From Chitinophagaceae bacterium (GTDB taxonomy: Bacteria > Bacteroidota > Bacteroidia > Chitinophagales > Chitinophagaceae): DNA of 64,000 nt. Where the stretch lies: NCBI GenBank assembly GCA_965246935.1, contig CBDFGC010000006.1, positions 293,961 through 357,960 of the forward strand. Direction: 5' to 3'. Shown in pieces: positions 31,858-59,671 of this stretch; position 1 is the stretch's first letter, and each line of letters starts with the position of its first letter. The position numbers were made by a program, and so were the translations under genes. The notes beneath the pieces were generated by a model. It was given only the letters and a program-made list of their open reading frames with translations. It made no database searches and was not told where the DNA came from.

Positions 31858-31934
31858 AAAAAGAAAACCTGCAAATCTTACGAAAATAGCTCGTAAAACA
31901 TTGCAGGCCTTTAAAAGTCGTTAATGGAAGCAAT

Positions 31935-32336: not shown

Positions 32337-32553
32337 TTGTTTTTATTTTTCTAATGATGGAAAGCAACAGCCGTTGCAATTATTATTCCTTAACTCTTAT
32401 TTTCTTATTCTTAATTCTATGCTGTTAACAGGAAGTGCCGCCAAAACGATAAAAGTATTTTTGAAGATAAAAAACAGCCCCGCTTTTTAGCAGGGCTGTT
32501 TTTTTATATAGCATGTAGAAAGCAATGTTGGTTCATTCTACATTTGGCAGTAT

Positions 32554-34719
32554 ATGCAGGGGAAACAATTACGAAAATTAGAAGCCGAGCTGTGGCGGGC
32601 TGCCGACCAGCTTCGGGCCAACAGTAAACTAACTGCTTCAGAATATTCAATGCCTGTGCTGGGGCTTATCTTTTTACGGCATGCTTTCAACCGGTTTAAG
32701 AAAGTAAAGGTTGATATTGAAAAGGATTTGCCTACGCACCCGCAACGTGGTAAACGGGCGTTGACCAAGAAAGACTTTGAAGAAAAAAACAGTTTGTTTT
32801 TGCCCGAAACGGCACAGTTCGATTACCTGGTGGCCCTACCGGAAAATACCGATATTGGTGAGGCAATTGATGCCGCCATGAAGGCTATTGAAGAAGCGTA
32901 CGATAACCTGAAAGGCGTACTGCCAAAGAACTTTTCCATTTTTAGCAAAGACCTGCTGCGGGAACTGCTTCGCATTTTTAATAAGGAAGTATTGCAAAAG
33001 GCCGAAGGTGATTTGTTTGGAAAGATTTACGAATACTTCCTCAACAAATTTGCCATGACCGGCGCACAGGAAGGCGGTGAATTTTTTACGCCCATGAGCC
33101 TGGTGCAAACCATTGTAAATGTAATAGAGCCCGACCATGGCATTGTGCTGGACCCCGCCTGCGGCAGTGCCGGTATGTTTGTGCAAACCGGCTATTTCAT
33201 TGAGAGCGAAGGCTTGCGGCCCGCTGAAAAAGTAACCTTTTACGGACAGGAAAAAGCCGAACAAAATACCCGGCTGGCCAAAATGAATATGGCCGTGCAT
33301 GGGCTGGAAGGCAATATACAGGAAGGCAATACTTTTTACGAAGACAAGCACAACCTGGCCGGCAGTGCCGACTTTGTAATGGCTAATCCGCCATTTAATG
33401 TGGATGGCGTGGACAAAGGCAAAGATGCTGTAAAGAAAGATCCCCGCCTGATGCTGGATGGCAAAGTAGCCCTGCCTAAAAATGACAATGCTAACTATCT
33501 GTGGATTCAGTATTTCTACAATTACCTGAAGCCAACCGGAAGGGCCGGGTTTGTAATGGCCAGCAGCGCCTCCGATGCGGGGCATAGTGAACGGGACATT
33601 CGGGAAAAACTGGTATGCACCGGTGCGGTAGATGTAATGATGGCGGTGGGCAATAACTTTTTCTATACCCGTAGCCTTCCCTGCACGTTGTGGTTTTATG
33701 ATAGGGGAAAGGAAAGTCTGAACCAGGATTTACAGGATGATAGAATGAGCAGGATAACGATAGCAAATAAGCAAAATCCTGGCTATCAGGCCATTCATGA
33801 AAATCCTGGTTCAGACAATTTTCGCAGCAAAGACACCGTGCTGATGCTGGATGCCCGCAAAATATACCGGAAGGTAACCAGCAAGGTAAACGATTTTAGC
33901 CCGGAGCAATTGCAAAACCTGATTTGCATTGTAGGCCTGTACCGGGGCGAAAATGAAAAATTTGCTACTACTGTAAAAAACTATTTACAGAAAGCATCCG
34001 ATGCTGCTTTTGCTGCGGTAGATGTTGTGGAACAATGGCAGCAAACAGTACAGCGCATTATTGGCAATGAGAAGATAAAAACCATTAGCGAAACACTATA
34101 CGAAAGCTTAAACAACCTGGAAGGCTACGAACCTGTGCAGCAGTTGCAAAAAGATTTTATAGATGCTGTAAAGAATAAGGCAACCACCGCAGGTTACGGT
34201 TCTACCTCCTCCGCTTTTGGGGGAGGTTGGGTGGGAGCCACCCTCCGTAAGCCATTGGATAAATTAGTAAAAATCCTGCTGGATACCGTTGCTGCTGCCC
34301 AGCGGAATGATGGCCTGAATAAGCTGCCGGCCTGGAAGGCGCTGAACCTGAAAGAAGAACTGGATACCCTGCGCAACCTGCAACAGCAACTAAGCGGAAA
34401 TGTAGAGGAAGAAGAGCCTGGCCTGCTGCATGAGATAGAGTATTATTACAAGCAAGCACACTGGCTTACCAGCCGTTTCCCGGATGGCGTGTATGCCGAT
34501 GTGGAAGGCTTGTGCAAAGTGGTAACGCAAGCCGAAATAGCAACCAAAGACTGGAGCCTGAGCCCCGGCCGTTATGTGGGCGTAGATGCCGCAACGGATG
34601 ACGGCATTGATTACGAAGAACGCCTGGCCGAAATACACATTGAGTTGGAAAGCCTGAACGAAGAAGCCATTACTTTAGCAAATTTGATAAGCGAAAATTA
34701 TAAGGAGTTGGTGGTATGA
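32554..34719 (+). CDS. hsdM: Type I restriction-modification system methyltransferase subunit HsdM (long form, 721 aa)
   Basis: HsdM N-domain, AdoMet motif LDPACGSAGMF, catalytic NPPF (MANPPFNV), C-terminal DWSLSPGRYVG; overlaps hsdS start by 4 nt. Confidence 0.88.
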   Translation: MQGKQLRKLEAELWRAADQLRANSKLTASEYSMPVLGLIFLRHAFNRFKKVKVDIEKDLPTHPQRGKRALTKKDFEEKNSLFLPETAQFDYLVALPENTDIGEAIDAAMKAIEEAYDNLKGVLPKNFSIFSKDLLRELLRIFNKEVLQKAEGDLFGKIYEYFLNKFAMTGAQEGGEFFTPMSLVQTIVNVIEPDHGIVLDPACGSAGMFVQTGYFIESEGLRPAEKVTFYGQEKAEQNTRLAKMNMAVHGLEGNIQEGNTFYEDKHNLAGSADFVMANPPFNVDGVDKGKDAVKKDPRLMLDGKVALPKNDNANYLWIQYFYNYLKPTGRAGFVMASSASDAGHSERDIREKLVCTGAVDVMMAVGNNFFYTRSLPCTLWFYDRGKESLNQDLQDDRMSRITIANKQNPGYQAIHENPGSDNFRSKDTVLMLDARKIYRKVTSKVNDFSPEQLQNLICIVGLYRGENEKFATTVKNYLQKASDAAFAAVDVVEQWQQTVQRIIGNEKIKTISETLYESLNNLEGYEPVQQLQKDFIDAVKNKATTAGYGSTSSAFGGGWVGATLRKPLDKLVKILLDTVAAAQRNDGLNKLPAWKALNLKEELDTLRNLQQQLSGNVEEEEPGLLHEIEYYYKQAHWLTSRFPDGVYADVEGLCKVVTQAEIATKDWSLSPGRYVGVDAATDDGIDYEERLAEIHIELESLNEEAITLANLISENYKELVV

Positions 34720-35912
34720 AATCCAAGGTTTATAAAATAGATGACATTAAAGCTCAAGGAAAGTACAATTTAGTGGGAGGGCCATTTGGGTCAGACTTAG
34801 TATCAAAAGATTATGTCGAGGCTGGAGTTCCAGTTCTCCGTGGTACAAACCTTCCTTTTGACAAAAAGTTTTCTCATGATGATTTGGTATTTGTTTCAAA
34901 TGAAAAGGCTAAAAAATTGAAAGCAAATATTGCGTTTCCTAGGGATATAGTTTTTACACAAAGAGGAACGCTTGGTCAGATCGGCATAATACCAACGGGA
35001 TTCTATGACGAATATGTTGTTTCCCAAAGTCAAATGAAGTTGACAGTTAATGAACAGTTGGCTGTACCTGAATTTGTTTATTATTATTTTAGTTCACAGA
35101 AAGGTAGAAATAGTATAAAGGCACATTCAATTACTTCAGGTGTACCTCATATCAATTTGACCATTTTAAAGAATTTGAAAATATTACTTCCTTTAATTCC
35201 AGTACAACAAAAAATCGTTTCAATTTTATCGGCTTATGATGATTTGATAGAAAATAACTTGAAGCGGATAAAACTGCTGGAGGAGTCCATTAATCTTAAT
35301 TACAATTTATTAAACTCTAAAGAAGATAAATATTGGAGTATTATTAAATTAAATTCTTTGATAGACATTATATCTGGTTATCCTTTTAAGAGCAATTATT
35401 ATAATGAAAATGGCAGGTATAAGATTGTTACGATCAAGAATGTTCAGGATGGATTTTTTATTTCTGAAGCAACAGATAAGATTGATGACATTCCTATAAA
35501 TATGAGTAAAAAAATATTTCTGAATACAGGGGATATAATAATGTCATTAACTGGAAATGTTGGAAGAGTATGTCTTGTCTTTGGTGATCATTATGTTTTA
35601 AATCAACGGGTGATAAAGCTTTCGGTAAAATTGGATACTGATAAAGGATTCACTTATGCGTTGTTACGGGATAAAAAAATGCAAACTACTTTAGAAAATT
35701 TATCAAGTGGTACAGCACAACAAAATTTAAGTCCCGTTAAAATGGGAGAGTTGTTTATTAAGTATCCAACTGCTATCCTGAGAAAAGAATTTAATCAAAT
35801 AACCCTCCCAATGATTGATTTAATTTGTAAGATCAATCAACAAAACACCAAACTCCGTGAAGCCCGTGATATTTTATTGCCAAGGCTAATGAGTGGGGAA
35901 ATAGAAGTATGA
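34716..35912 (+). CDS. hsdS: Type I R-M specificity subunit HsdS (two TRDs)
   Basis: Two target-recognition domains separated by conserved helical spacer; AT-rich as typical for TRDs; coupled to hsdM. Confidence 0.8.
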   Translation: MKSKVYKIDDIKAQGKYNLVGGPFGSDLVSKDYVEAGVPVLRGTNLPFDKKFSHDDLVFVSNEKAKKLKANIAFPRDIVFTQRGTLGQIGIIPTGFYDEYVVSQSQMKLTVNEQLAVPEFVYYYFSSQKGRNSIKAHSITSGVPHINLTILKNLKILLPLIPVQQKIVSILSAYDDLIENNLKRIKLLEESINLNYNLLNSKEDKYWSIIKLNSLIDIISGYPFKSNYYNENGRYKIVTIKNVQDGFFISEATDKIDDIPINMSKKIFLNTGDIIMSLTGNVGRVCLVFGDHYVLNQRVIKLSVKLDTDKGFTYALLRDKKMQTTLENLSSGTAQQNLSPVKMGELFIKYPTAILRKEFNQITLPMIDLICKINQQNTKLREARDILLPRLMSGEIEV

Positions 35913-35920
35913 TGTATTAT

Positions 35921-36023
35921 GTGCCGTAGGTACAACCTGTTTGTAGAAAATCAATTGCCATCCAACGTATTGTGCCACGTAGTGGCTACCTGTTAAATCC
36001 TGTGTACACGCTACAACTAACCC
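35921..36023. repeat. REP-like palindromic elements (variant gccgtaggtacaacctgtttgtag + canonical gccacgtagtggctacctgtt)
   Basis: Core palindrome GCCACGTAGTGGC; same family as arrays flanking the RAYT gene. Confidence 0.7.
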
Positions 36024-36062
36024 GTTGAAAAAATACAAACCGCTTTTATAAAAAACGAAAAC

Positions 36063-36476
36063 ATGTTTGACGAAACCAACAAATACAAAACAAACGACCA
36101 TTTCTTTTACATGCCGGGCAGCAGCTTGCCGGAAGTAAGCAAAGCGGTTCCTGCACTACCCGGTGTGTATTATATTATCCGGCTTGCCCGTGGCCATGTA
36201 GATCTTGTTTTTATTGGTAAATCCGGCGCAGGTGCCCAGCTAGGCAATTTAAAAGAAACAATTAGCCGGGGCCTTATCAGCGGCATATCAACCAAAGCCT
36301 CCCAAAGCTTCATACATCGGAAAATGATTGCCGAAAAAATAGATGGGCTTGACATTTACTGGTTTGTAACCATAGATGGCAAAAACAACGATTTACCCGA
36401 ATATGCCGAAGCATTATTAAAACAACGGGTGTACAATACGTATGGCAGGCTACCGCCGTGGAATGCAGAAGTGTAG
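36063..36476 (+). CDS. Hypothetical protein with possible GIY-YIG-like motif
   Basis: PGVYYIIR...LVFIGKSGAG loosely fits GIY-(x10)-YIG spacing; weak. Confidence 0.35.
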   Translation: MFDETNKYKTNDHFFYMPGSSLPEVSKAVPALPGVYYIIRLARGHVDLVFIGKSGAGAQLGNLKETISRGLISGISTKASQSFIHRKMIAEKIDGLDIYWFVTIDGKNNDLPEYAEALLKQRVYNTYGRLPPWNAEV

Positions 36477-36656
36477 ACATGCTATCCTATCTGTCGTTCG
36501 TTCCTAACCGTTTGTAAACAAATGATTACCATCCCCATTCTACAAGCAGGTTGTACCTACGGCACAAAAAACCCATGCACCCATAAAATCTATACAATCT
36601 GCCTCAGTGTAACACTCTGTTTTCAATAAAATAACATCTATCACTCAACACCATTT

Positions 36657-36850
36657 GCCCCGGCGGCTATCTATTTGTAGCATCAGCCGCAGTAATCTCC
36701 TTACGTAATCTGCCACGCAGTGGCTACCTGTTTGTAGCAGAAAACAATGTGATGAATCCACATCATCTGCCACGTAGTGGCTACCTGTTTGTAGCATCAG
36801 CCGTATTAATCTTCTTACGTAATCTGCCACGTAGTGGCTACCTGTTTGTA
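36657..36850 (+). repeat. REP array (4 units, + orientation) immediately upstream of RAYT gene
   Basis: ctgccacgtagtggctacctgtttgtagca x4 with two alternating ~27-bp linkers. Confidence 0.85.
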
Positions 36851-37006
36851 AATAGGCAAATTCCCTTCAATATTTTTTTGCACCTTCGGGATTATCCGTT
36901 TGTATTAAAATGAAAAATGGAATGAGATTTATTTCCTGTCCGGAAAAGATGATATTTTCATACATCGTATGACGTTGCTACCCATTTAACCCATTAAAAA
37001 ATATCA

Positions 37007-37474
37007 ATGGCTAACACTTATACGCAACTTCACGTCCATTTTGTATTCGCTGTAAAATATAGGGCAGCAATAATCGAAGATGGCTGGCGTGAAGAATTGC
37101 ATAAATACATTACCGGTACCGTTCAAAACAATGACCACAAAATGCTGTGTATCAATTCTGTTTCCGATCACCTGCACCTGTTTATTGGTTTCGATACCAA
37201 ACAATCTATTATGGAATTAATGCGGCAGGTGAAAGGCGATAGCGCTGAGTGGGTCAATGACAAACGGTTTACCAAAAGAAAATTTCAATGGCAGGATGGA
37301 TATGGAGCTTTCAGCAATAGCCATTCGCAGATTGATGCAGTTGTAAAATACATTATCCGCCAAAAAGAACATCACCAAAAGAAAACTTTTAGAGAGGAAT
37401 ACCTGAAGATGCTGAAAGATTATGGCGTTGAATATGATGAAAAATATGTTTTTCATGATTTGTTAGATGGATGA
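37007..37474 (+). CDS. IS200/IS605-family HUH Y1 transposase, REP-associated tyrosine transposase (RAYT)-like
   Basis: HVHFVFAVKYR (first His/His region), HuH motif DHLHLFI, catalytic Tyr in VKYIIRQKEHH (cf. IS200 YIRNQ..HH); 155 aa; flanked by inverted REP arrays. Confidence 0.8.
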   Translation: MANTYTQLHVHFVFAVKYRAAIIEDGWREELHKYITGTVQNNDHKMLCINSVSDHLHLFIGFDTKQSIMELMRQVKGDSAEWVNDKRFTKRKFQWQDGYGAFSNSHSQIDAVVKYIIRQKEHHQKKTFREEYLKMLKDYGVEYDEKYVFHDLLDG

Positions 37475-37500
37475 TGATCAACGAAAAACCATGCGCAAAT

Positions 37501-38150
37501 GCTACAAACAGGTAGCCACTACGTGGCAGATTACCTAAGAAGATCAATACGGCTGATGCTACAAACAGGTAGCCCCGCCGGGGCATAATGGTATGGATTC
37601 ATCACATTGTTTTCTGCTACAAACAGATAGCCACTACATGGCAGATTACGTAAGAAGATTAATACGGCTGATGCTACAAACAGGTAGCCACTACGTGGCA
37701 TAATGGTGTGGATTCATCACATTGTTTTCTGCTACAAACAGATAGCCACTACATGGCATAATGGTGTGGATTCATCACATTGTTTTCTGCTACAAACAGG
37801 TAGCCACTACGTGGCAGATTACCTAAGAAGATCAATACGGCTGATGCTACAAACAGATAGCCACTACGTGGCATAATGGTATGGATTCATCACATTGTTT
37901 TCTGCTACAAACAGGTAGCCCCGCCGGGGCAGATTACGGAAGAAGATTAATACGGCTGATGCTACAAACAGGTAGCCACTACGTGGCAGATGATGTAGAT
38001 TCATCACATTTTTTTTGCTACAAACAGGTAGCCCCGCCGGGGCAGATTACGTAAGAAGATCAATGCAGATGATGCTACCACAAACAGGTAGCCACTACAT
38101 GGCAGATGATGGAAGACGATCAATGCAGGTGATGCCTACCTGTTTGTAAC
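37501..38150 (-). repeat. REP tandem array (~11-12 units, 57-58-bp period, minus orientation) downstream of RAYT; CRISPR-like in appearance
   Basis: gctacaaacaggtagccactacgtggcag repeated with two alternating linker types (attacctaagaagatcaatacggctgat / ataatggtatggattcatcacattgttttct); variants with ccccgccgggg core. Confidence 0.85.
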
Positions 38151-38270
38151 AACTAAATAAGGTAATTAATATCCCAGGCATTTGTATATTTACCTATAAG
38201 CTGTTTCGTTTTTTAACCTGTTCAATGTCAAATAGCGATAAAGTAAGATCGTATTAGCCAAATGTGCTGT

Positions 38271-38340
38271 AAGCACTACCTGTTTGTAGAAAATGACAGC
38301 AATTAAATTGTTTTATGCCACGTAGTGGCTACCTGTTTAC
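38271..38340. repeat. REP half-site plus full REP copy
   Basis: cactacctgtttgtag ... gccacgtagtggctacctgttta. Confidence 0.6.
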
Positions 38341-38392
38341 CCCTTAGTTACGTTTACCAGCAAAAGATTATTAAAATACTAAACAGCCTCCT

Positions 38393-38683
38393 ATGCTAAA
38401 AACATGTGAAGTGAAATTGTATCAGGAATTATTGGATGAAACACCGGAAGAAGTTGAAACCTTCATTCGGCTATATGCTGATTTGCAATTAAAGATTAGC
38501 CGCATTGTGGAACAGAAAGGTATTACCAAAGAAACATTACTACAAGTCGAAGCCATGCAAACGCAGGAAACGAGGAAATGGCTAAAGGGTGAACATGATT
38601 TCTCTTTATGCTGTTTATCCAAACTGTCAGTTGAGTTAGAAGAGCCGTTGTTGGAAGTGCCATCTTTAAAAACTGAGCGGTAG
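38393..38683 (+). CDS. Hypothetical 96-aa protein upstream of hsdR
   Basis: ORF only. Confidence 0.3.
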   Translation: MLKTCEVKLYQELLDETPEEVETFIRLYADLQLKISRIVEQKGITKETLLQVEAMQTQETRKWLKGEHDFSLCCLSKLSVELEEPLLEVPSLKTER

Positions 38684-38724
38684 TTGATACGAATTTATAG
38701 GCACCCCTATATAAATTTCACACC

Positions 38725-41700
38725 ATGCCCTACGAATACTCCGAAGACAAACTGGTTGAGCAAACTGCTATGGATTTGTTCTTCCACCGGCTGGGCTGGG
38801 ATAGAAATTATGCTTTCAATAAAGAAACCTTTGGCGAAGGCAGTTCACTGGGCCGGCATAGCAAATCGGAGGTGGTACTGAAGCCCGTTTTTATGGAACG
38901 GCTACAGGCTTTCAATCCCGGCCTGCCGCAAAAAGCTTACGACGAAGCCTGGGCAAAACTGACAGAAGAAAGCGCCGTAAAATCAGGGGATGAAATCAAT
39001 TTTGAAAAATACCAGTTACTCAGAGACGGCATTCCAGTTGACTTCATTAACCAAAAAGGGGAACCTGTAAAAAATAAAATACTGCGGGTGTTCGATTTTG
39101 AGCAGCCCGACAACAACAAGTTTGTAGCCGTTCAGCAACTATGGATACAAGGGCGGAGCAACCGGGAGCGGCGGCCTGATATTATTGGTTTTGTGAATGG
39201 GATTCCCCTGCTGTTTATTGAACTGAAAGCCGCCCATCGCAAACTGGAAAATGCCTACAACGAAAATTTTTCCGATTATAAAGATGTAATTCCATCGCTT
39301 TTTTATTACAACGCATTTGTGATCCTGAGCAATGGCATCGAAAGCCGCATTGGCAGCGTTACCGGCAGGTACCAGCACTTCCACGAATGGAAACGTATTA
39401 CCGAGGAAGACAACGGCATTGTAGCGTTGGACCGCATCATTGTAGGCGTTTGCGAAAAGCACCGCTTTTTAGACCTGTTCGAAAATTTTATCCTGTTCGA
39501 TACTTCGCTGGGGAAAGTAATGAAACTCATTGCCCGCAACCACCAGTTTATCGGTGTCAATAAAGCCATCGAAAATATCCGGCAAAAAAAGGATATGTAT
39601 GCACATGGCAGCATCAGCCGGGAGGAAAAGCAGCGCCTGGGTGTATTCTGGCACACGCAGGGCAGCGGCAAGAGTTACTCCATGGTTTTCTTTTGCCAGA
39701 AAATTCACCGCACATTTAAGGGCAGCCATACCTTTTTTAATTGTTACCGACCGCAACGAACTGGATACGCAGATATATGGTACATTCAGCGGTGTTGGTG
39801 CCGTGCCGCAGATAAAAGCCGGTGCCAAGGAATCACTAAAAGCGGGCAGCGGCAAGCATTTAAAAGAGTTACTCAGTTCGGAGCATCGCTACCTGTTTAC
39901 CCTCATTCATAAGTTCAACTTTGCAGAAGAGATTACGAGGCGGGATAATATCATTGTTATTTCCGACGAAGCCCACCGCACCCAGGGCGGCAGCCTGGCC
40001 ATGAATCTGCGAAACGCTTTGCCCAATGCTTCCTTCATCGGCTTTACAGGTACGCCATTGTTTAAAGACGACGAATTAACGAGACGCATTTTCGGGGATT
40101 ACGTAAGCCGGTACGATTTCAAACGCAGTGTGGATGATGGTGCTACCGTACCGCTGTATTACGAAAACAGGGGCGAATATTTAGGATTAAAGAATCCGGC
40201 TATCAATCAACAGATACGGGCCATCATTGATGCTGAAACAGAAGACCTGGATAGTGACCAGCGCAGCAGCATCGAAAAATTGTTTGCCAGAGAATACCCT
40301 ATTCTTACCTCCCGAAAGCGACTTGATACTATTGCCAAAGATGTGGTATGGCATTTTTGCAACCGGGGGTATAAAGGCAAAGCCATGTTTGTGGCGCTGG
40401 ATAAACTAACAGCCGTTAAAATGTACGACGGGATTATCCAACACTGGAATAATTACATAGCCCAAACAGAAAAAGAAATAGCCAAAGGCAAATATGGCGA
40501 CCAGGAACTACTGGCAAAAAGCCGGGAACTGGTATGGATAAAAGCAACGGAAATATGTGTGGTAGTAAGCAGCGAGCAAAATGAAATACAGAAGTTCCGC
40601 AAATGGGATCTGGACATTGAGCCACACCGGGAAAAGATGAACACCCAAGATTTGGAAACCCGGTTTAAAGATGAAGCTGATCCCTTCCGGCTGGTAATTG
40701 TTTGTGCCATGTGGATCACCGGTTTTGATGTGCCTACGCTTTCTACCTTATACCTTGATAAGCCGCTGAAATCCCACACGCTGATGCAGGCCATTGCAAG
40801 GGCCAACCGCATCAGCGAAGGCAAAAATAACGGGCTGATTGTGGACTATATTGAAACCTATACTGCCCTGCTGGATGCACTGGCCATTTACGGTTCCAAC
40901 GGGGAGGACGGTGATGGTACAACGCCTGAACTACCGGTAAAGCCGAAGGAAGAACTGATCCGGCAACTGGAAGAAGCGATTACGGCAACAGAACATTTTT
41001 TACAGGATGAAGTAAGTTTCAATCTAACGGAACTGGTAAATGCCACTGCACTGCAAAAGCTGGCTGCACTGGAAAAAGGCATCAATGCCATATATACCAA
41101 CGACGAAACCAAACGTAAGTTTCAAATATTGGGAAGAGCAGTTTTTAAGAAATACAAAGCCCTGCAGCCGGATAAAGTGCTAAACCAATACGCTCCCTAA
41201 GAAGAATGCAATCGATGTAATCTACACCGCAATTGAAGGCAATATCGAGAGTGCTGATGTATCGGAGATCATGAAAAAGATTCAGACAGTTGTGGATGAA
41301 TCTATTGAAACGATGGCATCCGAGCAACCATCACAGGATGAGGGCAAAATCATTGACCTGAGCGGATTGAATTTTGAGTTGCTTGAAAAGTACTTCTCAA
41401 AGCTGCAACACAAAAACATAGCCGTTCAGTCGCTGAAGGATATGGTGGAAAAAAGATTGAAAAAGATGCTTGAACGCAACCCACTGACTATTGATTATTA
41501 CAAGCGTTACCAGGAAATTATTGATGCCTATAATCTTGGTAAAGATGAAGCGGTGATTAAGGAAACTTTCCGCAAACTGATAGAACTGATAAATGATTAT
41601 TCAGCCGAAGAAGCAGATACAAAAAGAGAAGGTCTGACGGATGAGCAAAAAGCGATATTCGATATTTTACGGCATGGCAAAGAACTGGCAGAAAAAGAAA

Positions 41701-41951
41701 AGAATGCCATCAAAGAAATTGCTATCGATTTGTTGGCAGCGTTGAAAAAAGAGAAACTAAAAGTGGAGCAATGGTCTGATAAATCGGCTACAGCGGCGGC
41801 CGTTTTTAAAACAGTAAACGACACCTTGTTTGAAGCATTGCCCTATCCTACTTACCATACTAATGATATTGACCTGAAAACAAACCTGGTGTACAACCAT
41901 CTGAAAAAGCAATACTATGGTGGCGGGCAAAGTATTTATGGCTCGTATTGA
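38725..41951 (+). pseudogene. hsdR: Type I restriction enzyme R subunit HsdR, disrupted by two single-base homopolymer frameshifts (near 39733-39738 and 41195-41197)
   Basis: HsdR_N nuclease domain (IIGFVNGIPLLFIELK), helicase motif I GSGKSYSMVFF, motif Ia-II FLIVTDRNELD / VISDEAHRTQ in +1 frame, C-terminal DUF3387-like KKNAIDVIY...VVDESIE in third frame; three ORFs 38725-39912, 39530-41200, 41271-41951 jointly ~1075 aa. Confidence 0.8.
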
Positions 41952-42017
41952 GCTACATCGTTATATATCTTTATCCTGCCGTTACCGGTTGTCTGACATT
42001 CACTTAAAAATATAAGT

Positions 42018-42296
42018 ATGGACTATCCGAATTCAAAATCATCACAGCCCTTGATTGCTCATGATGAATTGCAATTTGCGTTCATGTTGATTGAGCGGGG
42101 GATTGATGCGTCGGAAGCGCATAGCCGCAACCGTTCAATACTTTGGGACAAAGGATTGCCATTTTACACAATCCTGATTGATAAAAAAAACATCAGCCAT
42201 AAGGAATATTCTAATGGTACCCGGCAACTTGTTAGCCGCCATATAAATGAAGATGGCAGTATTACTGATGAATTAATTGAAGAGCTTACCAGCTAA
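42018..42296 (+). CDS. Hypothetical protein
   Basis: 92-aa ORF, AT-rich. Confidence 0.3.
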   Translation: MDYPNSKSSQPLIAHDELQFAFMLIERGIDASEAHSRNRSILWDKGLPFYTILIDKKNISHKEYSNGTRQLVSRHINEDGSITDELIEELTS

Positions 42297-42397
42297 AAAA
42301 ATCTGTTTGCAACCACGCTTTATTCTCATCACCGCACTACAAGTAAGCGCCGGACTCTGTCCGGTGCTGGCAGGTTACTTATTTTCCATCCTGACGA

Positions 42398-42667
42398 ATG
42401 CTCAAATTAAGTAACGTGTGGACACAGGACAGAGTCCTGCGCCTATTAAGTGAAGAGACAGTACCCGAAAACTTTACCATCATCATTCCGGATGATGACC
42501 GGAAAGGCTGGCGGAAATTAGTACAAGACGCAGCGGTTAGAAAGGAACATATCATTTTAGAAAGCCCCTGGAACAGTGAAACTAGTACAGAGATAATTTA
42601 TTCCCGTAAACGGGAAGGTTATAACTTAATCATGTACCAGCTATATTTAAACAGCCCGGATGAGTAA
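42398..42667 (+). CDS. Hypothetical protein
   Basis: 89-aa ORF. Confidence 0.3.
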   Translation: MLKLSNVWTQDRVLRLLSEETVPENFTIIIPDDDRKGWRKLVQDAAVRKEHIILESPWNSETSTEIIYSRKREGYNLIMYQLYLNSPDE

Positions 42668-42816
42668 TGAAAAAGAGTTTTACAACGGAATGACATTATT
42701 GAAAGGCAATTAGATAAAGACATGGTAAAAAATAATTTCAATATCAATTTATTCGACGACAGTTGCTCCAAACCTCCCTTTAGGGCAATGTCCTTAATTT
42801 AAGAATTGTAGTAGCT

Positions 42817-43408
42817 ATGCGCCGTAGGTGCAACCTGTTTGTAGCAAACAGACATCATTGACGTTGGTGGCTGCCACGTAGTGGCTACCTGATCAGAGAA
42901 GGGGGTAGCCACTACGTGGCAATGATTCCCTTTTTCGTTTTGTTTTCTACAAACAGAAAGCCCCGATGGGGCTTATCTTAATGACATTGGCTTAAAGGGG
43001 GCTAACGGTTCACCTTCACATTTGATGCCTACTCCAGGATTTACGCATTTGTCTATTGTTTTGGTGGCACAAATCAAGTTCCCCCTTTAGAGTCTGTCCC
43101 GGACCCCAGCCGGTTGGTTAGGGGCAACCAACCCCGGATAAAAACATCCTGTAACTGAAGAAGTTAGACAACTTTACTTAGTAAAGTGGTCAAAATAACT
43201 TGTACAATAGAAGCGTGATATTACCCCAGCCTTAGCAAACAAAGAGGCAAAGGGAATCATTGCCACGTAGTGGCTACCCCTTCTCTGATCAGGTAGCCAC
43301 TACGTGGCATGCACCAACATCAATGATTTCTGTCTTCTACAAACAGGTTGCACCTACGGCGCATAACTGATACATTAATCCTTATCTTAATGACATTGCC
43401 CTAAAGGG
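42817..43408. repeat. Composite REP-containing inverted-repeat structure: ~120-bp arms (42817-42960 vs 43243-43364) each containing a REP inverted pair, flanking a ~280-bp centre with further hairpins; flanked by ~40-bp direct repeats at 42711-42750 and 43570-43609
   Basis: Reverse complement of 42817-42960 matches 43245-43364 almost base-for-base; cttatcttaatgacattgSc.taaagggg direct copies at 42971-43000 and 43381-43408; module ccccctttagagtctgtcccggacccc shared with MITE at 13106. Confidence 0.7.
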
Positions 43409-43531
43409 GAACTCGTTTTTACCTGAAAAATTAGTGGCAACTATGAGTATTTTGAAGTTCCTATGACAGTTTGAAAGTGTCCAAAAGCCCCCTTTAGGAG
43501 GGTTTGGGGGCAACCAGGTCAGATTGATGAA

Positions 43532-43843
43532 ATGTTCAGGTTATTTCGACAGCTTTACTTAGATAAAGACATGGTAAAAAATAATATTAATTTCAATTTC
43601 AGAAACATGTTTCAACATTTCTATTATTTTGATTTTGCTTACTTCATCAACAATTCAACAGACGAAAAAGGATTGAAAGTTGCATTTGCCAAAGGCACAC
43701 TCATTTATCTGAAAAGGAATGATGATCAGTTCTTACATGCATTTAAAGACATCGCTTTTAGTCGTGGATACATGAATATAGTAGCCGAACAAATCATAAG
43801 TGCAAATCAAGATTCGAGCACCCATTATTCAACTGGCCGATAA
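43532..43843 (+). CDS. Hypothetical protein; N-terminal coding region duplicated at 42722-42800
   Basis: 103-aa ORF; MVKNNINFNF.. start duplicated upstream as truncated copy. Confidence 0.3.
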   Translation: MFRLFRQLYLDKDMVKNNINFNFRNMFQHFYYFDFAYFINNSTDEKGLKVAFAKGTLIYLKRNDDQFLHAFKDIAFSRGYMNIVAEQIISANQDSSTHYSTGR

Positions 43844-43892
43844 TTTAGTTAATCCTTCCTATAATTTGATAATAACTAATTATACCTGAGCA

Positions 43893-45770
43893 CTACCCCA
43901 CAGCCTTACCTCCATCTGAACCTTTTTTACTAACACTTTCCTTACTAATAACGCCCTCATTTTCCTTTTTCAAATTCTTAAACAGTTCATTGCCCATCAG
44001 CGCTGATAGCATGCCGCCTTCATTTTCGCCGGCGCCATTTACCAGTATCTCCGGTACAATCTTTACTTTGTTCTCCGCCAGGTAACGAACAATCTGCACC
44101 TGTGCGTATTCCTTCATACCCATCGCTTCCGTTTTCTTCCGGGTTACTTCTGCTTCGGCATTACCTACCGCTAATATTTTTCCGGCATCTGCCTGGCCGG
44201 TTACGCTGGTCACTTCCGCATCGGCTTTTGCATTAATGGTTTTCGATTCGCTATCGCCTTTTGCTTCTTCAATTTTTGCAGCAGCGAGGTTCTTTTTTAT
44301 TTCTACCTGCTGATGGCTTGTTACCACTTCCGGCTGCATATTGGCCAGCGCTTTGGCACTCTCAAACTGTTTACGGGTATCCTGTGCCAGCTTCTGCGTA
44401 TCGTAGGTAATGGTTTCCTGCTCGGCCAGTTTACGGTCGGTCAGTGTTTTCATCAATTCGGCAGGCGGGGTAATGTCGCCTATTAAAGTATCCACCGCTT
44501 TTACGTTGTATTCATCCAGTGTTTTTTTGATATGTTCTTTGGCTTCGTTTTGCCGGGTAGTACGGTTCTTTAAAAAATCGATCACATCACTTTTTTGGGC
44601 GGAGTTACGGAAGTAATTTCCAATGGTGGGTTCCAGCACCTGCGATACCAGGTTGGTCATGGTGCCAAACCGGGCAATCACTTTCGGCGCATCAACGCTG
44701 GGCACATGGATGATCTGTGACACGTCTAAATTAAACGTAAACCCGTCGGATGACCGTACAGTAATGGTGCTCAGGTTTTTATCCAGTTGGTGGGCTTCAC
44801 TACGCTGGTTGGCCCAGTTAAGCACCAGGTTGGTGGTAGGAACAATTTCAATGGTATGTGTATAGGTGTTAATGGCATACTTACCCGGATCCAGTGCTAC
44901 GTTCCAAACACCCCGTTGCCCCTTTTTTACAATATTGCCATGCTCAAATTCAATGCCGCTGGTATCCTGCCCAATGGCGCCCACAAAGGAGTTCACCACG
45001 CCTACGTAGCCGATAGGTATATGCAGCATATCCACCTGGTCTACCGAAGCAAACCACGGGTTCAGGTAGTAGGAACCTGCCAGGATTACATCTTCCTGCC
45101 GTCCTTTCTGACCGCCGCCAGAAAGAAACTTTACCGGGTCCTGGTAGTTTTTATGGTCGGCAACCGATTTTCCGGCAATTTCATCATGGTCCAGTGGCTC
45201 ACCGTCATGCGTGGTAATGATGCCCACTTTGTTTTCGGAAACATGCGTTACCGGTTTTAATTCCACTTCAAATAAAAAGGTATTGATACGGTAACTACCC
45301 GGCGTTAGGTAAGCAGCCTGCGGGCCTTTTTGTCCCCGGTTGATCAAAAACTTTTCAGCATCCTGAAATTTATCGCACTCTACCGGCAAAGCAAGGATAC
45401 GGCCGGGGTTCAGCGGTTCGCCATCGTTGGCTTTCATCAAACCCAGGTTGCCTTCCGGTACCACGGTGAAAGGCTGCATTTTAATGGAATACTGCCACGG
45501 CCAATATCCCCAATACAGCCCCGGCGCCAGTGTTTGTGCCTGCATACCTGCCTCGCCGTTGGTAGCCAAAATCCGGTTGTTCTTCATTTCCCGGTTGCTG
45601 CCAACCAGCACAAAGTTTTTGATGACCAGGCCAATCCGGTCATCCGGCACAATTACCATCCCAAAGAAAAAGCGGAGTATTAATTTATAGAGTAAAATAG
45701 CAAGAAGTACCGGTATAATCCACCAGTATTGCAAAAGGGTTGGGTTCATAATGTATAAAATGCGTTGCAA
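43893..45770 (-). CDS. Flotillin-like SPFH/band-7 family protein (YqiK/FloA-like)
   Basis: N-terminal TM, SPFH domain, long C-terminal Ala/Glu/Lys-rich coiled-coil (EAKGDSESKTINAKADAEV...), 625 aa. Confidence 0.7.
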   Translation of the reverse strand: MQRILYIMNPTLLQYWWIIPVLLAILLYKLILRFFFGMVIVPDDRIGLVIKNFVLVGSNREMKNNRILATNGEAGMQAQTLAPGLYWGYWPWQYSIKMQPFTVVPEGNLGLMKANDGEPLNPGRILALPVECDKFQDAEKFLINRGQKGPQAAYLTPGSYRINTFLFEVELKPVTHVSENKVGIITTHDGEPLDHDEIAGKSVADHKNYQDPVKFLSGGGQKGRQEDVILAGSYYLNPWFASVDQVDMLHIPIGYVGVVNSFVGAIGQDTSGIEFEHGNIVKKGQRGVWNVALDPGKYAINTYTHTIEIVPTTNLVLNWANQRSEAHQLDKNLSTITVRSSDGFTFNLDVSQIIHVPSVDAPKVIARFGTMTNLVSQVLEPTIGNYFRNSAQKSDVIDFLKNRTTRQNEAKEHIKKTLDEYNVKAVDTLIGDITPPAELMKTLTDRKLAEQETITYDTQKLAQDTRKQFESAKALANMQPEVVTSHQQVEIKKNLAAAKIEEAKGDSESKTINAKADAEVTSVTGQADAGKILAVGNAEAEVTRKKTEAMGMKEYAQVQIVRYLAENKVKIVPEILVNGAGENEGGMLSALMGNELFKNLKKENEGVISKESVSKKGSDGGKAVG

Positions 45771-47906: not shown

Positions 47907-48142
47907 GTGAAGTTGTCAAAATAAGTTCAGCAAACAGCCTTTATGCTCCATCGGAGCATTTGGTGAGTAGAAGATGATTAGGCGGCTCGTATTAGCGTTC
48001 CATCGGAACGCATGGTGCGGATGGTAGCACCAAACGTTCCGATGGAACGTTGAAAGCTTTTAGGTTGAATTGCTGCTACCCACCAAATCTTCCTACGGGA
48101 GAAACATCACTTGAATTGCTGAACTTATTTTGACAACTTCAC
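47907..48142. mobile_element. MITE-like 236-bp element with perfect 27-bp terminal inverted repeats and internal palindromes
   Basis: gtgaagttgtcaaaataagttcagcaa (47907-47933) / ttgctgaacttattttgacaacttcac (48116-48142); inner palindromes gcgttccatcggaacgc and acgttccgatggaacgt; TIR tip resembles ISAzo13-like IS TIR (aaataagttSaRcaaa). Confidence 0.6.
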
Positions 48143-51253: not shown

Positions 51254-52537
51254 AAATAAATAAGTTGAACAAAAAGCAGTATAAATTTGGGATAAAAACC
51301 AGAGATGATAAGCCCCTATAATCATCAAATAGAAGAGCTAATGCGTCTTCATTATAATCGGCTGTCAGAAAGGGAAAAGCGTTGGTATGCGGCTGTTGAA
51401 GCATCTAAATTAGGCTGGGGCGGTACGACTTACATCAGCCACCTGTTACAACTCAGCCGTACTACAGTCACGGTTGCCAAAAAGGAAATGCAGGCTGGCT
51501 TACTACAACCCCAAGTGCCAACAGCAGGCAGGCAGCGAAAAACAGGCGGCGGGCGAAAAAAAAAGTACAGAAAAGCTGGCTGATGCCACCTTACAGTTGA
51601 TCATTTTACTTCAAAGCCTCAAAGCCGGTAGCCCCACCGATGCAACTGTTTACTGGATAAGCCTCAGGCCCCGGCAAGTAGCACAACTCTTTGAAGCACA
51701 GCATCAGTTTAAAATAAGCCATAGTTTTGTAAAGCGGGTACTCAAAGAACAGGGGTATGGCTATCGAAAACAGTCCAAACAATTAGCCACTGGCAGCTAC
51801 AGCCGTCGCAATGAGCAGTTTGAAATCATTTGTGCGATGGTATTGGTAATGAGCCTGCAAAGCCCTGTGCTCAGCATGGATTGCAAGAAAAAAGAGCGGT
51901 TAGGTAATTTATACAGAGGGGGCAAATGCTACAGCACCAAAGCTATGAAAGTATATGACCACGATTATGAGCATTTATCAGAAGGCAAAGTCATTCCTCA
52001 TGGAATTTATGATATGCAGGCCAATAAAGGCTATATCTCTATCGGGGGCAGCAGCGAAACAGCAGATTTTGTAATAGACAACCTGCTATGGTGGTGGTGG
52101 GAACATGGTATTCATCGCTACCCGGATGCAAAGAACATCCTGTTGTTCTGCGATGCAGGAGGTGCCAATAGCTATCGCCATCATGCCTTTAAGTACCAGC
52201 TACAGCTCTTTGCCAAGGAAACAGGCTTATCTGTTATTGTATGTCACTATCCGCCTTACTGTTCTAAATGGAACCCGATAGAACATCGCCTGTTCTGTCA
52301 GGTGCATAAAGCGATGGAAGGTGTTGTTTTTACCGATTATCAAACTGTTCAACAATGTATCGGGCAGACCGCTACTCAAACAGGCTTAACAGTGGCGGTA
52401 AGGCTCAACCTTCAGCAATACACAACAGGCAGGAAGATAGATAAAGAACTTATTGATCAAAACCGAATAACCTTTCATCCCCTCATTCCGGAACTCAACT
52501 ATAGAATCTATCCATGATTTGTTCAACTTATTTATTT
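51254..52537 (+). mobile_element. ISAzo13-family insertion sequence (~1.28 kb) with 20-bp perfect terminal inverted repeats
   Basis: TIR aaataaataagttgaacaaa at 51254-51273 and its reverse complement at 52518-52537; encodes DDE transposase with DCKKKERLGN motif. Confidence 0.75.
51305..52517 (+). CDS. ISAzo13-family DDE transposase, two overlapping frames joined by frameshift in A9 tract (51556-51564)
   Basis: N-terminal HTH ORF ends ...TGGGRKKKYRKAG*; downstream frame continues ...EKKSTEKLADATLQLI; LSMDCKKKERLGNLYRGG, DAGGANS, CHYPPYCSKWNPIEHRLF typical of family. Confidence 0.7.
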
Positions 52538-54592
52538 CGCTTTACTTATCAGCATAACCATTCCTTTTTTGAAAATTTTCTTACCGGTATAATCTTTCCC
52601 CTGTACCATGTATAGGTATGCTCCTGTCAATAATTCGCCGGAACTGATAGCGCCATTCCAACCCTTATTTACTTCCGAAGTGGTAAATACAGCCTGCCCA
52701 TAGCGGTTGTAAACAGTAAAATAATCCAGCTTTGTTATCCCTATTAAAATGGGTTTCAGCACATCGTTTTTTCCATCGCCGTTTGGCGTAAAGCCTGTAG
52801 GTACTAAAATAGCAGGACCACTTTTGAATACAGTTATTTTTACATCATCCGTGGCAGCGCAACCTTCTTTTGTGGTAGCGGTTAGTGTAAAAGCGACGAT
52901 GTCCGGAGCAGCCACGTTAAAGGTAGCTACCGGGTTTTGAATGGTACCATTATTTAAAAAAGAAGTGGGTTGCCAGCTATATTGTAAGGTAGCGGTATTG
53001 CCCGGGCTGCTGCCATTTAATTGCAAAGGCTGCCCGATAATGGCAAACGTGTCGTTGCCGGCAAAGGTGATAAACTTTTGTATCACTTTTATTGTAACGG
53101 TATCGCTTACTGTTTTAGGACAATAAAATGTATCTCTTACAGATAAGATATAACTGGTGGTATTTACCGGCGTGGCAACCGGGTTTAAAATTGTGTTGTT
53201 TGATAAAGCGGTGACCGGGCTCCAGTTGAAATAAGAAGCGTTAATTACCCCATTCAGCCTAATGCTGTTACCAACACAAATAGCGGTATCGGCACTGGCT
53301 TTTACTGTAGGATAAGGGGAGGCATGCACAATTATTGTAGCACTGTCTGTGCACAGGCCCAATGTTCCGGTTACAGAATACACCGTGTTTTGCATTACAG
53401 GCAATGCTTTCGGATTTTTTACATAATAATTACTTAGTGTATTACCGCCGCCGCTTTCTTTCCATACATAGTTCACCGCATCACTAATGGGATTCAGGAT
53501 AGTGTTGTCGGTCATGCACACGGCTGTATCTGTTACCAGTTTTACAGAAATGCTATTGAAGATTTTAATGGTTGCCGTGGCAGAATCTATAAAGCCGTTA
53601 TCACCGGTGATGTTGAGCTTTAGCGTATAGGTGCCAACACCGGGATAGGTGTACGTTGGCATGGCAAGATGAGAGGTATCGGCATTCGTAGTGAGATCAC
53701 CAAAATCCCAGCGGTATGTCGTAATGGCCGGGCAGGTTGGTTGCTCCGCCTTAAAGTTGAACGTAAAGATTTTGCAATTGCTGTAGAGCGGTTTTAACAG
53801 CGGTTTTACGAAAGGGCAACTGGTTACTTTAATCTGGGATTCTTTTTTGGCCGTGTTTAGCAGAACACCGTTACGCCATTCGCTGGCATATACGGCAATG
53901 GTATATCCGCCGGGCTTATCAGGCGCTGTGCCGGTAAGCGTACCGGTAACAGGGTCAATGCTGAAAACCCCGGTACCCAGGGGGTCGGTACCGCTATACT
54001 GCGCCCAGTATTGCACAGGGATATTCGGAGGAGAAGTACCCGGATCTCTTACGCCGTCAACGGCATTACCAATGCTGTAAGAAATAGAATCACCATCCGG
54101 GTCGGTAGCAGTAAATGGAAAAGAAAAGGACGTATTCCGGCAAACGGTCATCGTATCATTAATACTGAATTGCAGGCTTTTATTTCTATGGTAATCAATG
54201 CCATTCATGAATCCGGGAATAGTCGTTGTAAATAATATCCCCGAATTTGCCGGATCGTAGATACTCACAATACTGGTATCTCTTGTAAAAAGGGATGCGG
54301 CAATTAAATAACCATGCGGATTATCAGGCAAGGTGATAGATCCGCCCACGGCAATCATTTTATACGCATTATTTAAAGCTGTAGCATTAGTACAAGGCGG
54401 AAACCGGTTGGAGGTGAAAAAATTATAAATTGTATCTACTGTGGTAGCACTACGTACAGGCGTCCCGTTTACAGCATCGTAGGCGTAAAAAGTAATTGAG
54501 CGGTAGTTGCCATTGGTAACGGCTTTCCATATCGTTACATAATAAATATTCGTGTGGTCATCGTTATTTGGATACAAAAACTCACATTCCAT
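52532..54592 (-). CDS. Secreted protein with T9SS type B (CHU_C / gliding-motility-associated) C-terminal sorting domain
   Basis: C-terminus FTPNGDGKNDVLKP...FTVYNRYGQAVFTTSE...GWNGAISSGELLTGAYLYMV is the classical CHU_C domain; 686 aa. Confidence 0.75.
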   Translation of the reverse strand: MECEFLYPNNDDHTNIYYVTIWKAVTNGNYRSITFYAYDAVNGTPVRSATTVDTIYNFFTSNRFPPCTNATALNNAYKMIAVGGSITLPDNPHGYLIAASLFTRDTSIVSIYDPANSGILFTTTIPGFMNGIDYHRNKSLQFSINDTMTVCRNTSFSFPFTATDPDGDSISYSIGNAVDGVRDPGTSPPNIPVQYWAQYSGTDPLGTGVFSIDPVTGTLTGTAPDKPGGYTIAVYASEWRNGVLLNTAKKESQIKVTSCPFVKPLLKPLYSNCKIFTFNFKAEQPTCPAITTYRWDFGDLTTNADTSHLAMPTYTYPGVGTYTLKLNITGDNGFIDSATATIKIFNSISVKLVTDTAVCMTDNTILNPISDAVNYVWKESGGGNTLSNYYVKNPKALPVMQNTVYSVTGTLGLCTDSATIIVHASPYPTVKASADTAICVGNSIRLNGVINASYFNWSPVTALSNNTILNPVATPVNTTSYILSVRDTFYCPKTVSDTVTIKVIQKFITFAGNDTFAIIGQPLQLNGSSPGNTATLQYSWQPTSFLNNGTIQNPVATFNVAAPDIVAFTLTATTKEGCAATDDVKITVFKSGPAILVPTGFTPNGDGKNDVLKPILIGITKLDYFTVYNRYGQAVFTTSEVNKGWNGAISSGELLTGAYLYMVQGKDYTGKKIFKKGMVMLISKAK

Positions 54593-59564: not shown

Positions 59565-59671
59565 GGTTGTGCGTAATTTTATAGACACCTGATGCTGTTT
59601 AGTATTTTAACACTTGTTGGAAAATAGATAAAAAATATTAAAGTATCGATTTTGTGTGCTGCAGGCACATT

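Follow-up and report, generated by a model that had tools for sequence, protein, structure and literature searches.

A putative composite of REP units and IS4-family MITEs in front of a small conserved gene of a Chitinophagaceae bacterium

What builds a long palindrome between two copies of the start of one gene? The question is raised by a block of DNA at 42710-43599 in a 64-kb stretch of a Chitinophagaceae bacterium (contig CBDFGC010000006.1, positions 293,961 to 357,960; the whole of this stretch, 64,000 nucleotides, is referred to below as the window). A sequence-only reading had described there a nested inverted repeat built from pairs of repetitive extragenic palindromes (REPs) and flanked by direct repeats of a gene start. 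As judged from its sequence, the block resolves into one complete 224-bp MITE (miniature inverted-repeat transposable element) whose interior is REP sequence, an inverted second copy of this MITE that is decayed at one end, and REP-derived spacers. We consider it probable that a REP cluster of small size arose ahead of a small gene and later received two insertions of a MITE that seeks the loops of REPs.

Inserted DNA between copies of a gene start

The palindrome is formed by two inverted arms. A repeat search returned them as two stretches, 42807-42904 / 43277-43374 (98 nt, 91%) and 42902-42949 / 43233-43280 (48 nt, 90%), and gapped alignment extended them to 42776-42949 and, in reverse complement, 43233-43408, where 155 of 173 positions agree (90%). 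The arms had been described as near-perfect reverse complements. Complementary they are, but perfectly so only in 18-nt REP cores, located at 42872-42889 / 42904-42921 in the left and at 43261-43278 / 43292-43309 in the right arm. These cores constitute the inverted REP pair (TGCCACGTAGTGGCTACC / GGTAGCCACTACGTGGCA) that each arm had been said to contain. The core segment between the arms measures 283 nt, close to the ~280 bp given for it earlier, and both hairpins quoted from it are present. Folded as single-stranded DNA, the entire block reaches -213.5 kcal/mol (z = -19).

A direct repeat of 41 nt bounds the block, with one copy at 42710-42750 (DR1) and the other at 43559-43599 (DR3); the copies share 38/41 positions at a spacing of 849. 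By our own arithmetic, the chance expectation of a 41-mer repeated with 3 mismatches inside 1.9 kb is ~1e-13. The direct repeat as such had been recognised, with its right-hand copy placed about 10 nt too far to the right, at 43570-43609. It spans 12 nt upstream of the ATG, nine complete codons from the ATG on and two bases of the tenth codon. In DR3 it is part of the live gene and is continuous with the related contig L042 from 43562 on. In DR1 the ATG at 42722 opens a frame reading MVKNNFNINL that then runs into the insertion, i.e. the truncated upstream copy of the gene that had been noted. DR1 is included in an orphan copy of the 5' region of the gene on the plus strand, 42689-42750, which is 82% identical to L042 1097-1158.

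The search for an empty site, which had been proposed as a check, was successful in L042. There, the gene start is single and continuous, while the window holds two copies of it with 808 nt (42751-43558) between them. Window positions 42689-42750 correspond to L042 1097-1158 and positions 43562-45611 to L042 1121-3178, covering the small gene and an adjacent SPFH/Band7 gene; upstream, synteny is found again between 31802-32407 and L042 229-832, which carry an HbpS-like gene. As the gene start is uninterrupted in L042, the segment 42751-43558 can be taken from this alignment as inserted DNA, as the idea of an insertion or of a duplicated gene part had implied. Synteny was compared by means of the SPFH/Band7 gene (43893-45770), which lies downstream of the small gene in convergent orientation, in 41 genome loci and three metagenome/Logan contexts, and no related genome of identical structure was seen. 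The nearest genomes by this gene are metagenome-assembled genomes of Segetibacter and Parafilimonas, both Chitinophagaceae. The closest SPFH relatives (91%, 90%, 83% and 81% amino acid identity) have different neighbours, so that only L042 is informative. Exact-protein look-ups for close strains with the products of the open reading frame (ORF) 43532-43843, the Y1 transposase gene described below, P0001 and ORF 42398-42667 gave none on record.

The gene behind the block is small, and it is conserved. Its public gene call (43571-43843, plus strand; P0001, 90 aa, 100% identical) is the public-data version of ORF 43532-43843, with the start at 43571. One homologue of P0001 was found, P0002, which is encoded on L042 and shows 66% identity; searches of Pfam and NCBIfam with the gene product gave no match. 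Against L042 the dN/dS ratio is 0.14 for the small gene and 0.03 for the SPFH gene. The small gene is real, intact and, by its ratio, under purifying selection, which places the block in front of the gene and not in the role of a disruption. In annotation, no gene should be called within 42700-43560 from the short ORFs there or from the truncated copy of the gene start.

A third copy of the gene start is present inside the block. The segment 43164-43198 (DR2', plus strand; TTAGACAACTTTACTTAGTAAAGTGGTCAAAATAA) is a decayed version of the gene start together with the 14 nt preceding DR3, termed junction k (43545-43558). Local alignment of DR2' with 43545-43584 gave a score of 36, compared to 16.7 +/- 2.3 for shuffled sequences (z = 8.5). 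The gene start is thus found in triplicate, as DR1, the decayed DR2' and DR3. Two spacers, T1 (43000-43163) and T2 (43409-43544, which together with k fills 43409-43558), both on the plus strand, are weakly homologous in direct order (global alignment z = 3.6), and each ends in the same junction k followed by the gene start. The core between the arms is made up of T1, DR2' and a decayed MITE end. It is a REP-derived spacer that holds the third gene-start copy, and not cargo or a gene for an RNA.

REP units, a Y1 transposase gene and IS4-type MITEs

Twenty copies of the REP core GCCACGTAGTGGCTACC are found in the window, where 0.04 would be expected. The complete unit has the form TGCCACGTAGTGGC-TACCTGTTTGTAG-CA, with a stem of 5 bp, a loop of 3 nt and a tail containing GTAG. 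This tail, CTGTTTGTAG, is conserved, and GTAG stands 8 nt from the stem (…GGCTACCTGTTTGTAG). Several stem variants still pair (GCCAC/GTGGC, GCCCC/GGGGC, GCGCC/GGTGC, GTGCC/GGTAC and GTGCT/AGCAC). In the alignment of the units 95% of the stem cells are paired and compensatory changes affect four of the five pairs; the covariation score of 0.63 compares with 0.29 in shuffled alignments, none of 500 shuffles reaching the observed value. The REP core was absent from all comparison loci retrieved, and L056 alone shares the REP tail.

In the left arm of the block, REPs of three types were assigned, namely a(+) at 42814-42848, c(+) at 42872-42891, c(-) at 42902-42921 and b(-) at 42945-42977; the right arm has c(+) at 43261-43278, c(-) at 43290-43309 and a(-) at 43335-43367. 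The inverted c(+)/c(-) pairs, with spacers of 14 and 13 nt and 18/18 complementary positions, resemble the REP doublets forming hairpins known as REPINs. Within the window this tight doublet is confined to the block; elsewhere, REPs stand in arrays or in a looser pair at 59651-59850, where an a+c doublet faces a c(-) unit and a type-a-like unit follows at 59875-59907. A possible REP-like hairpin is also found in 47926-47958 (TGCTCCGATGGAGCA, at about 47944-47958). In addition, inverted type-a REPs at 35914-35948 / 36538-36572 (91% complementary) enclose ~590 bp, making 35914-36572 a second case of inverted REPs around a segment; the ORF bracketed by them (36063-36476, 137 aa) has no match in Pfam or NCBIfam.

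A putative source of these units is located 5 kb upstream of the block. The only Y1 transposase gene of the window (37007-37474, 155 aa) is IS200-like and similar to REP-associated tyrosine transposases (RAYTs); its product matches Pfam Y1_Tnp (7.6e-27) and the NCBIfam IS200/IS605 model (73.9 bits). REP arrays flank the gene, with four REPs upstream (36650-36853, plus strand) and about 12 downstream (37496-38151, minus strand), and together with it make up a REPtron at 36650-38151 on the plus strand. The arrays have a period of 57/58 nt, two alternating spacer types and a higher-order repeat of 115 nt. Homologues of the Y1 protein with 74-76% identity were found in two other genomes, and the same type of REP adjoins them in the same arrangement (CTACAAACAGGTAGCGCCTATGGCGCA in L070, GCCGCATAGCGGCTACCCGTTTGTAG in L072). 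We place the REPs of the block in the family around the window's Y1 gene and regard the REPtron as the presumable supplier of that family. The motifs DHLH, WQ and YIIRQKEHH of the Y1 protein correspond to the Y---Q--HH signature of subclass 1.2, and some of its homologues are labelled 'RayT' by JGI. Members of subclass 1.2 have been described as low-copy, occurring in Cyanobacteria and Bacteroidetes and generally devoid of terminal structures or REPs (Quentin 2018, PMC6006769). The repeats beside the homologues in L070 and L072 hint that flanking hairpin arrays may be general for such Y1 genes.

The ends of the arms are of a different origin. Three occurrences of a 23-nt motif, CTTAATGACATTGCCCTAAAGGG, were counted in the window (0 expected), and all of them are in the block. 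Its extended form is a terminal inverted repeat (TIR) of 28 nt with the consensus CCCTTTAGGGCAATGTCATTAAGTTAAG, and copies are present at 42776-42803, 42972-42999 and 43381-43408 with 2, 3 and 1 mismatches, respectively. The terminus, GGCAATGTCATTAAG, is that of IS4-type elements. Scanning of metagenome contigs with a degenerate form of the TIR yielded 23 loci (L043-L065), most of them with an inverted partner copy; the six adjoining bases (CTTAAC) are conserved as well, and past the GGG tip there is an abrupt loss of conservation. In L052 the TIRs at 3509-3536 and 4938-4965 bracket an ORF of 441 aa, the product of which passes the NCBIfam IS4-family model with 134 bits (cut-off 115); nothing was returned for it by Pfam or by a sequence search of the PDB. 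The autonomous elements of this insertion sequence (IS) group have a size of ~1.46 kb. Besides the copy at 3509-4965 of L052 they are found in L055 (3590-5046), L061 (378-1857) and L063 (about 1896-3337), with transposases 38-50% identical to that of L052 and nearly the same ends, the near-invariant end being GGCAATGTCATTAAGTTAAG. The TIR common to L052, L055 and L061 served as the reference for the three matches in the window. Among annotated plasmid genes the closest are transposases labelled 'IS4 family' or 'ISPa1635 family', with 33-41% identity. No relevant match to the TIR sequence was found in the literature.

The remaining TIR loci contain elements of 143-401 bp which have the same ends and no ORF, i.e. 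MITEs. One of these, in L053, carries internal REP-like hairpins with a tail …CTACGTGTTTATAG. Another, in L049, is reiterated together with flanking DNA (4089-4668; three tandem units, each a 164-bp MITE plus a 44-nt spacer, with a period of 208); its spacer motif ttattttctaccaatatt also adjoins the TIR in L047 and L057. Outside the conserved core GCAATGTCATTAAGTTAAG stand 8 nt, CCTTTAGG or CCTAAAGG, which are repeated directly and without mismatch in 8 of the 15 two-ended elements. They represent the duplication of a fixed target, CC(C)TTTAGG(G). What this target can be is seen in L056, where a MITE (3176-3520) lies inside the loop of a REP of the window's family (TGCCCCCTTTAGG|…|…GGGGGCTACCTGTTTGTAGCA, right flank CCCTCTTGGGGGCTACCTGTTTGTAGCA) and a REP almost identical to type a of the window (CTACAAAGCGGTAGCACCTACGGCGCA) follows 130 nt further on. 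At least in this genome, and as shown in this one locus, the IS4 group inserts into the loop CCCTTTAGGG of a REP variant.

The block can be read with these two families. MITE1 occupies 42776-42999 on the plus strand and comprises, in this order, the left TIR (IRL, 42776-42803), a(+), c(+), c(-), b(-) and the right TIR (IRR, 42972-42999). It measures 224 bp, inside the size range of the family's MITEs, has no ORF of at least 40 aa and adopts the fold of a single long hairpin (-55.9 kcal/mol, z = -9.6). MITE2 (43199-43408, minus strand) is an inverted copy of MITE1: the segment 43185-43408 is 85% identical to MITE1 in inverted and 72% in direct orientation. It begins with a decayed end and a relic of REP b (to about 43232), followed by c(+), c(-), a(-) and the TIR at 43381-43408. 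The a-end and its TIR are kept, while the inner end is broken within REP b and has lost the TIR. The inverted arms are the a-halves of MITE1 and MITE2.

REP-like sequence may extend beyond the MITEs. T1 starts with GGGGGCTAACGGTT, resembling a REP 3' half plus tail, and has a REP-like hairpin with an enlarged loop at 43081-43137; T2 opens similarly with GGGGAACTCGTTTTTAC and has a REP-like hairpin, GCCCCCTTTAGG…GGGGGCAACC, at 43484-43516. A hairpin of the form CCCCCTTTAG…GGGGCAACCA is found in both spacers. GGGGGCTAACGGTT and GGGGAACTCGTTTTTAC, being short similarities, may be REP 3' halves with tail positioned just outside both right-hand TIRs, and the left junction j1 (42751-42775, between DR1 and the first TIR) is possibly the relic of a REP tail and a 5' half-hairpin (…CCTCCCTTTAGG). 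Among the parts of the block only the REP units recur elsewhere in the window; no further copy of T1, T2, j1 or the TIR was found in the 64 kb. T1 had no match in L042, and the core and spacers showed no significant similarity to the 264 bp that are replaced in L042 or to the window's own upstream segment.

Taken together, the block is composite and non-autonomous, consisting of REPs of the Y1 family and of IS4-type MITE ends, with no ORF of its own and no IS4-family transposase gene in the window. The notion of a composite non-autonomous element is borne out in this form. To the parts first noticed are added the IS4-type TIRs, the third gene-start copy in the core, and an intact gene under selection behind the block.

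History of the block and competing explanations

How these parts could have come together is suggested by two known properties of REPs. REP clusters expand when REP units, and with them pieces of the adjoining DNA, are reiterated in tandem (Di Nocera 2013, PMC3733652), and REPs serve as targets of ISs (Tobes & Pareja 2006, PMC1525189). In the history proposed here, a REP-bearing segment of ~190 bp would initially have been reiterated, and with it the ~40 nt at the beginning of the gene region. Each of the reiterated units would then have presented the same CCCTTTAGGG loop, and one MITE family would have landed in each of the loops in opposite orientations, giving rise to the inverted arms of 174 nt. 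Later decay would have taken the middle gene-start copy and one MITE end. Two plain tandem direct units were also considered as an account of the block and were rejected in part: direct order holds for the related spacers, whereas the two MITE copies face opposite ways.

In its present state the block is non-autonomous debris without a function of its own. As side effects, strong hairpins or terminator-like stems probably stand between the upstream ORFs and the gene, and the old upstream region of the gene would have been displaced by 849 bp.

The 41-nt repeat could be mistaken for a target duplication made by a transposase, and this possibility was rejected. IS200/IS605-type Y1 enzymes make no target duplication and the IS4 group duplicates 8 nt, which makes a 41-nt target duplication unlikely.

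Several observations do not sit easily with the proposed growth and double colonisation. The flanks of the TIR pairs lack the direct 8-nt duplication of the family: for the pair M1/M2 they show 3 mismatches in direct and 1 in inverted comparison, for the pair M1/M3 2 and 0. With flanks inverted instead of direct, MITE1 is not demonstrably the result of a single clean transposition, and instead of an independent insertion the right arm may represent the left arm duplicated in inverted orientation, 9 nt of flank included. Divergence is uneven as well, with DR1 and DR3 93% identical, the arms 90%, k+DR2' and k+DR3 about 76% with indels, and T1 and T2 about 60%. No single simple history accounts for these values without gene conversion or several events, and the k-DR junction seems older than the DR1/DR3 pair. 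The similarities by which j1, k and the hairpins of the spacers are read as REP relics are short and weak. Finally, the sole empty site belongs to a distant relative; dS against L042 is above 1 and the events can therefore not be dated closely.

The most serious competitor, in our view rather unlikely, holds that DR1 was imported. The segment 42689-42750 would be the right end of the adjacent 10.3-kb island, the REP/MITE cluster would have pre-existed in the recipient, and DR1 and DR3 would be donor and recipient alleles, the island having entered by way of homology at its HbpS end and through an illegitimate join at the end next to DR1. The island (32408-42688), which contains a type I restriction-modification (R-M) locus, the REPtron and small ORFs, replaces L042 833-1096 and ends 22 nt before DR1, and DR1 alone carries the L042-type upstream 22 nt, DR3 and DR2' both being preceded by k. 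DR1 moreover keeps the ancestral codon 6, TTC, as in L042, whereas DR3 differs there, and an age of the k-DR junction exceeding that of the DR1/DR3 split would fit. However, DR1 is much nearer to DR3 (38/41) than to L042, which would require a donor that is related very closely, and independent signs of a donor/recipient mosaic are missing. The composition of the block would be the same if the import had occurred.

The other explanations concern what the block is. It would be quite improbable for it to be a single IS4-type composite transposon of 633 bp that extends from IRL 42776 to IRR 43408, carries the core as cargo and has duplicated 41 nt of target. The outer TIRs are indeed the best preserved (2 and 1 mismatches) and the arms are 90% complementary, but the family duplicates 8 nt at CCTTTAGG, and the 8-nt flanks of the outer TIR pair are inverted, not direct. 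In addition, 25 nt (j1) and 150 nt (T2+k) separate the TIRs from the 41-nt repeats, and an internal IRR (42972-42999) as well as the third gene-start copy would lie inside the transposon. The succession of repeat, unit, decayed repeat, unit and repeat might also recall tandem integration or amplification between attachment sites, as if a circular DNA of ~400 bp with a gene-start copy had integrated, possibly twice, in a site-specific or Campbell-type manner, with the repeats as attL, internal att and attR. This is very improbable; decay has gone much further in the middle repeat than in the outer ones, the units, composed of parts of REPs and MITEs, match no known integrative module, and no integrase or recombinase gene was found in or near the block. 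Long inverted repeats around a short segment directly upstream of a gene, with a very stable fold, could further be expected of a functional switch in which the 283-bp core is inverted by way of the 174-nt arms to give a phase-variable promoter, or of a non-coding RNA or leader. We consider such a function highly improbable, given that the arms are made of mobile repeats, that no invertase gene is nearby, that L042, as the only syntenic relative, lacks the block and that the 3 promoter-like sites found, none of them in the core, compare with 3.9 expected. Nor was an RNA annotation obtained that would have spoken for the core: Rfam gave 0 matches at the gathering threshold over the whole 64 kb and nothing credible on 42000-44200 with E up to 5 (the best sub-threshold match, freshwater-1 in T1, had 23.7 bits against a cut-off of 72), and the scan for tRNA and tmRNA genes gave none. 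The chance of an assembly artefact, finally, is next to negligible. REP arrays do break assemblies, and many of the Y1 homologues are on contigs of ~1 kb, but the copies in the block have diverged (90%, 93%, 76%) and are neither collapsed nor identical, the junctions are unique sequence, and the called protein P0001 comes from a contig of 358 kb. Growth of a REP cluster followed by two MITE insertions is the reading we prefer.

Genomic neighbourhood and relation to known repeat systems

The R-M locus of the island upstream of the block has hsdM at 32554-34719, hsdS at 34716-35912 and hsdR at 38725-41951. The locus is split by the Y1 gene, the REPtron being situated between hsdS and hsdR. hsdR consists of three overlapping or adjacent ORFs (38725-39912, 39530-41200 and 41271-41951) and is apparently a pseudogene. 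Two small unassigned ORFs, 42018-42296 and 42398-42667, are also part of the island. Between them a 42-nt inverted repeat (42344-42445, 79% complementary, 18-nt loop) is found, which has no relation to the REP family and extends over the beginning of the second ORF. Further downstream in the window, the ORF 51474-52517 encodes an ISAzo13-type DDE transposase (Pfam DDE_Tnp_ISAZ013, 9e-89), belonging to a third, unrelated transposase family, and 52532-54592 encodes a CHU_C/T9SS protein (T9SS, type IX secretion system). On the side of L042, P0002 has an N-terminal extension (989-1129; …HTLTTRQGHPVTNNQSSRTVG…) that adjoins the HbpS-like haem-binding gene. This extension appears similar to the N-terminus of catalases, in which case it may be the remnant of a deleted catalase gene. 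A possible TIR relic stands just upstream of the gene start, with p about 0.004 in L042 (GGGCAATGATATCATTGAAAG) and about 0.03 in the window; the signal is weak.

All components of the block are of known kinds, namely REPs and a REPtron, doublets of REPIN type, MITEs derived from ISs, ISs that target REPs, and REP clusters that grow with flanking DNA, and they do not constitute a new kind of system. With the REPs, BIMEs (bacterial interspersed mosaic elements), REPINs and REPtrons described earlier for RAYT (TnpA_REP) Y1 transposases (Nunvar 2010, PMC2817692; Bertels & Rainey 2011, PMC3116915; PMC3733652; PMC6006769) the units share short G+C-rich hairpins, the GTAG tail and the covarying stem. 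The many intergenic copies, the inverted arrays around a single Y1 gene and the head-to-head REP pairs forming hairpins are likewise features of REPtron systems, and reiteration along with flanking DNA is one of REP clusters. Differences from described REPtrons lie in the host, a Chitinophagaceae-like member of the Bacteroidota, in the stem of only 5 bp, in the distance of 8 nt between GTAG and the stem, and in the subclass 1.2 signature of the Y1 protein, whose role in mobilisation is putative.

MITE1 and MITE2 resemble bacterial MITEs derived from DDE-type ISs, such as Correia/NEMIS, RUP, MITEAba12 and the MITE of P. gingivalis, in being small and non-coding, in sharing the TIRs of autonomous ISs and in their strong secondary structure. 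Unlike these, they have an interior made of REPs, i.e. of a different (HUH) system, the direct target duplication is not preserved, and no autonomous partner is found within 64 kb. The nearest annotated relatives of their IS4 group are ISPa1635-like.

Targeting of REPs has been described for ISPpu9, ISPpu10, ISPa11, ISPsy8 and ISRm19/22 (Tobes & Pareja 2006, PMC1525189). With such ISs the present group shares insertion at a fixed position of the REP hairpin, as seen in L056, and the use of REP clusters as nests of IS ends. IS1397 and ISKpn1 are also REP-targeting insertion sequences. To our knowledge, none of the named REP-targeting examples is a member of the IS4 family, while here an IS4-family DDE element is concerned that duplicates 8 nt of the loop, its targeting being shown in one locus and conjectured for the window. 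In Salmonella, REPs reportedly mediate tandem duplication, according to work of Shyamala, Schneider and Ames from 1990. The role of REPs as recombination points that reiterate adjacent unique DNA would be common to both cases, but the units here are of ~400 bp and not of kilobases, and the joins are not demonstrably inside REPs.

The block is of value as a worked example: long palindromes of this lineage resolve into two known repeat systems, the REPs of a Y1 transposase and the MITEs of an IS4-family IS. Leads for further work are an IS4-family group that has an almost invariant end of 19-28 nt and, as its fixed target, CCCTTTAGGG, which a REP loop can provide; MITEs with an interior of REP material; and the REP arrays beside a Y1 transposase whose subclass had not been linked to REPs. 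In the searchable literature we found neither the present IS4 group with its fixed end and REP-loop target, nor MITEs with REP interiors, nor REP arrays around a subclass-1.2 Y1 transposase.

A more general possibility, to which we would give only a slim chance, is that chimeras of the form TIR-REP-REP'-TIR are a recurrent class of non-autonomous elements movable by two unrelated enzymes, the IS4 DDE transposase acting via the TIRs and the RAYT-like Y1/HUH transposase via the REPs, with the IS4 group homing to the REP loop, and that Y1 proteins of subclass 1.2 act as RAYTs for a large REP family of GTAG type in Bacteroidota. If this were true, REPs and MITEs would seed each other's spread, and clusters such as the present one would grow by a self-reinforcing cycle.

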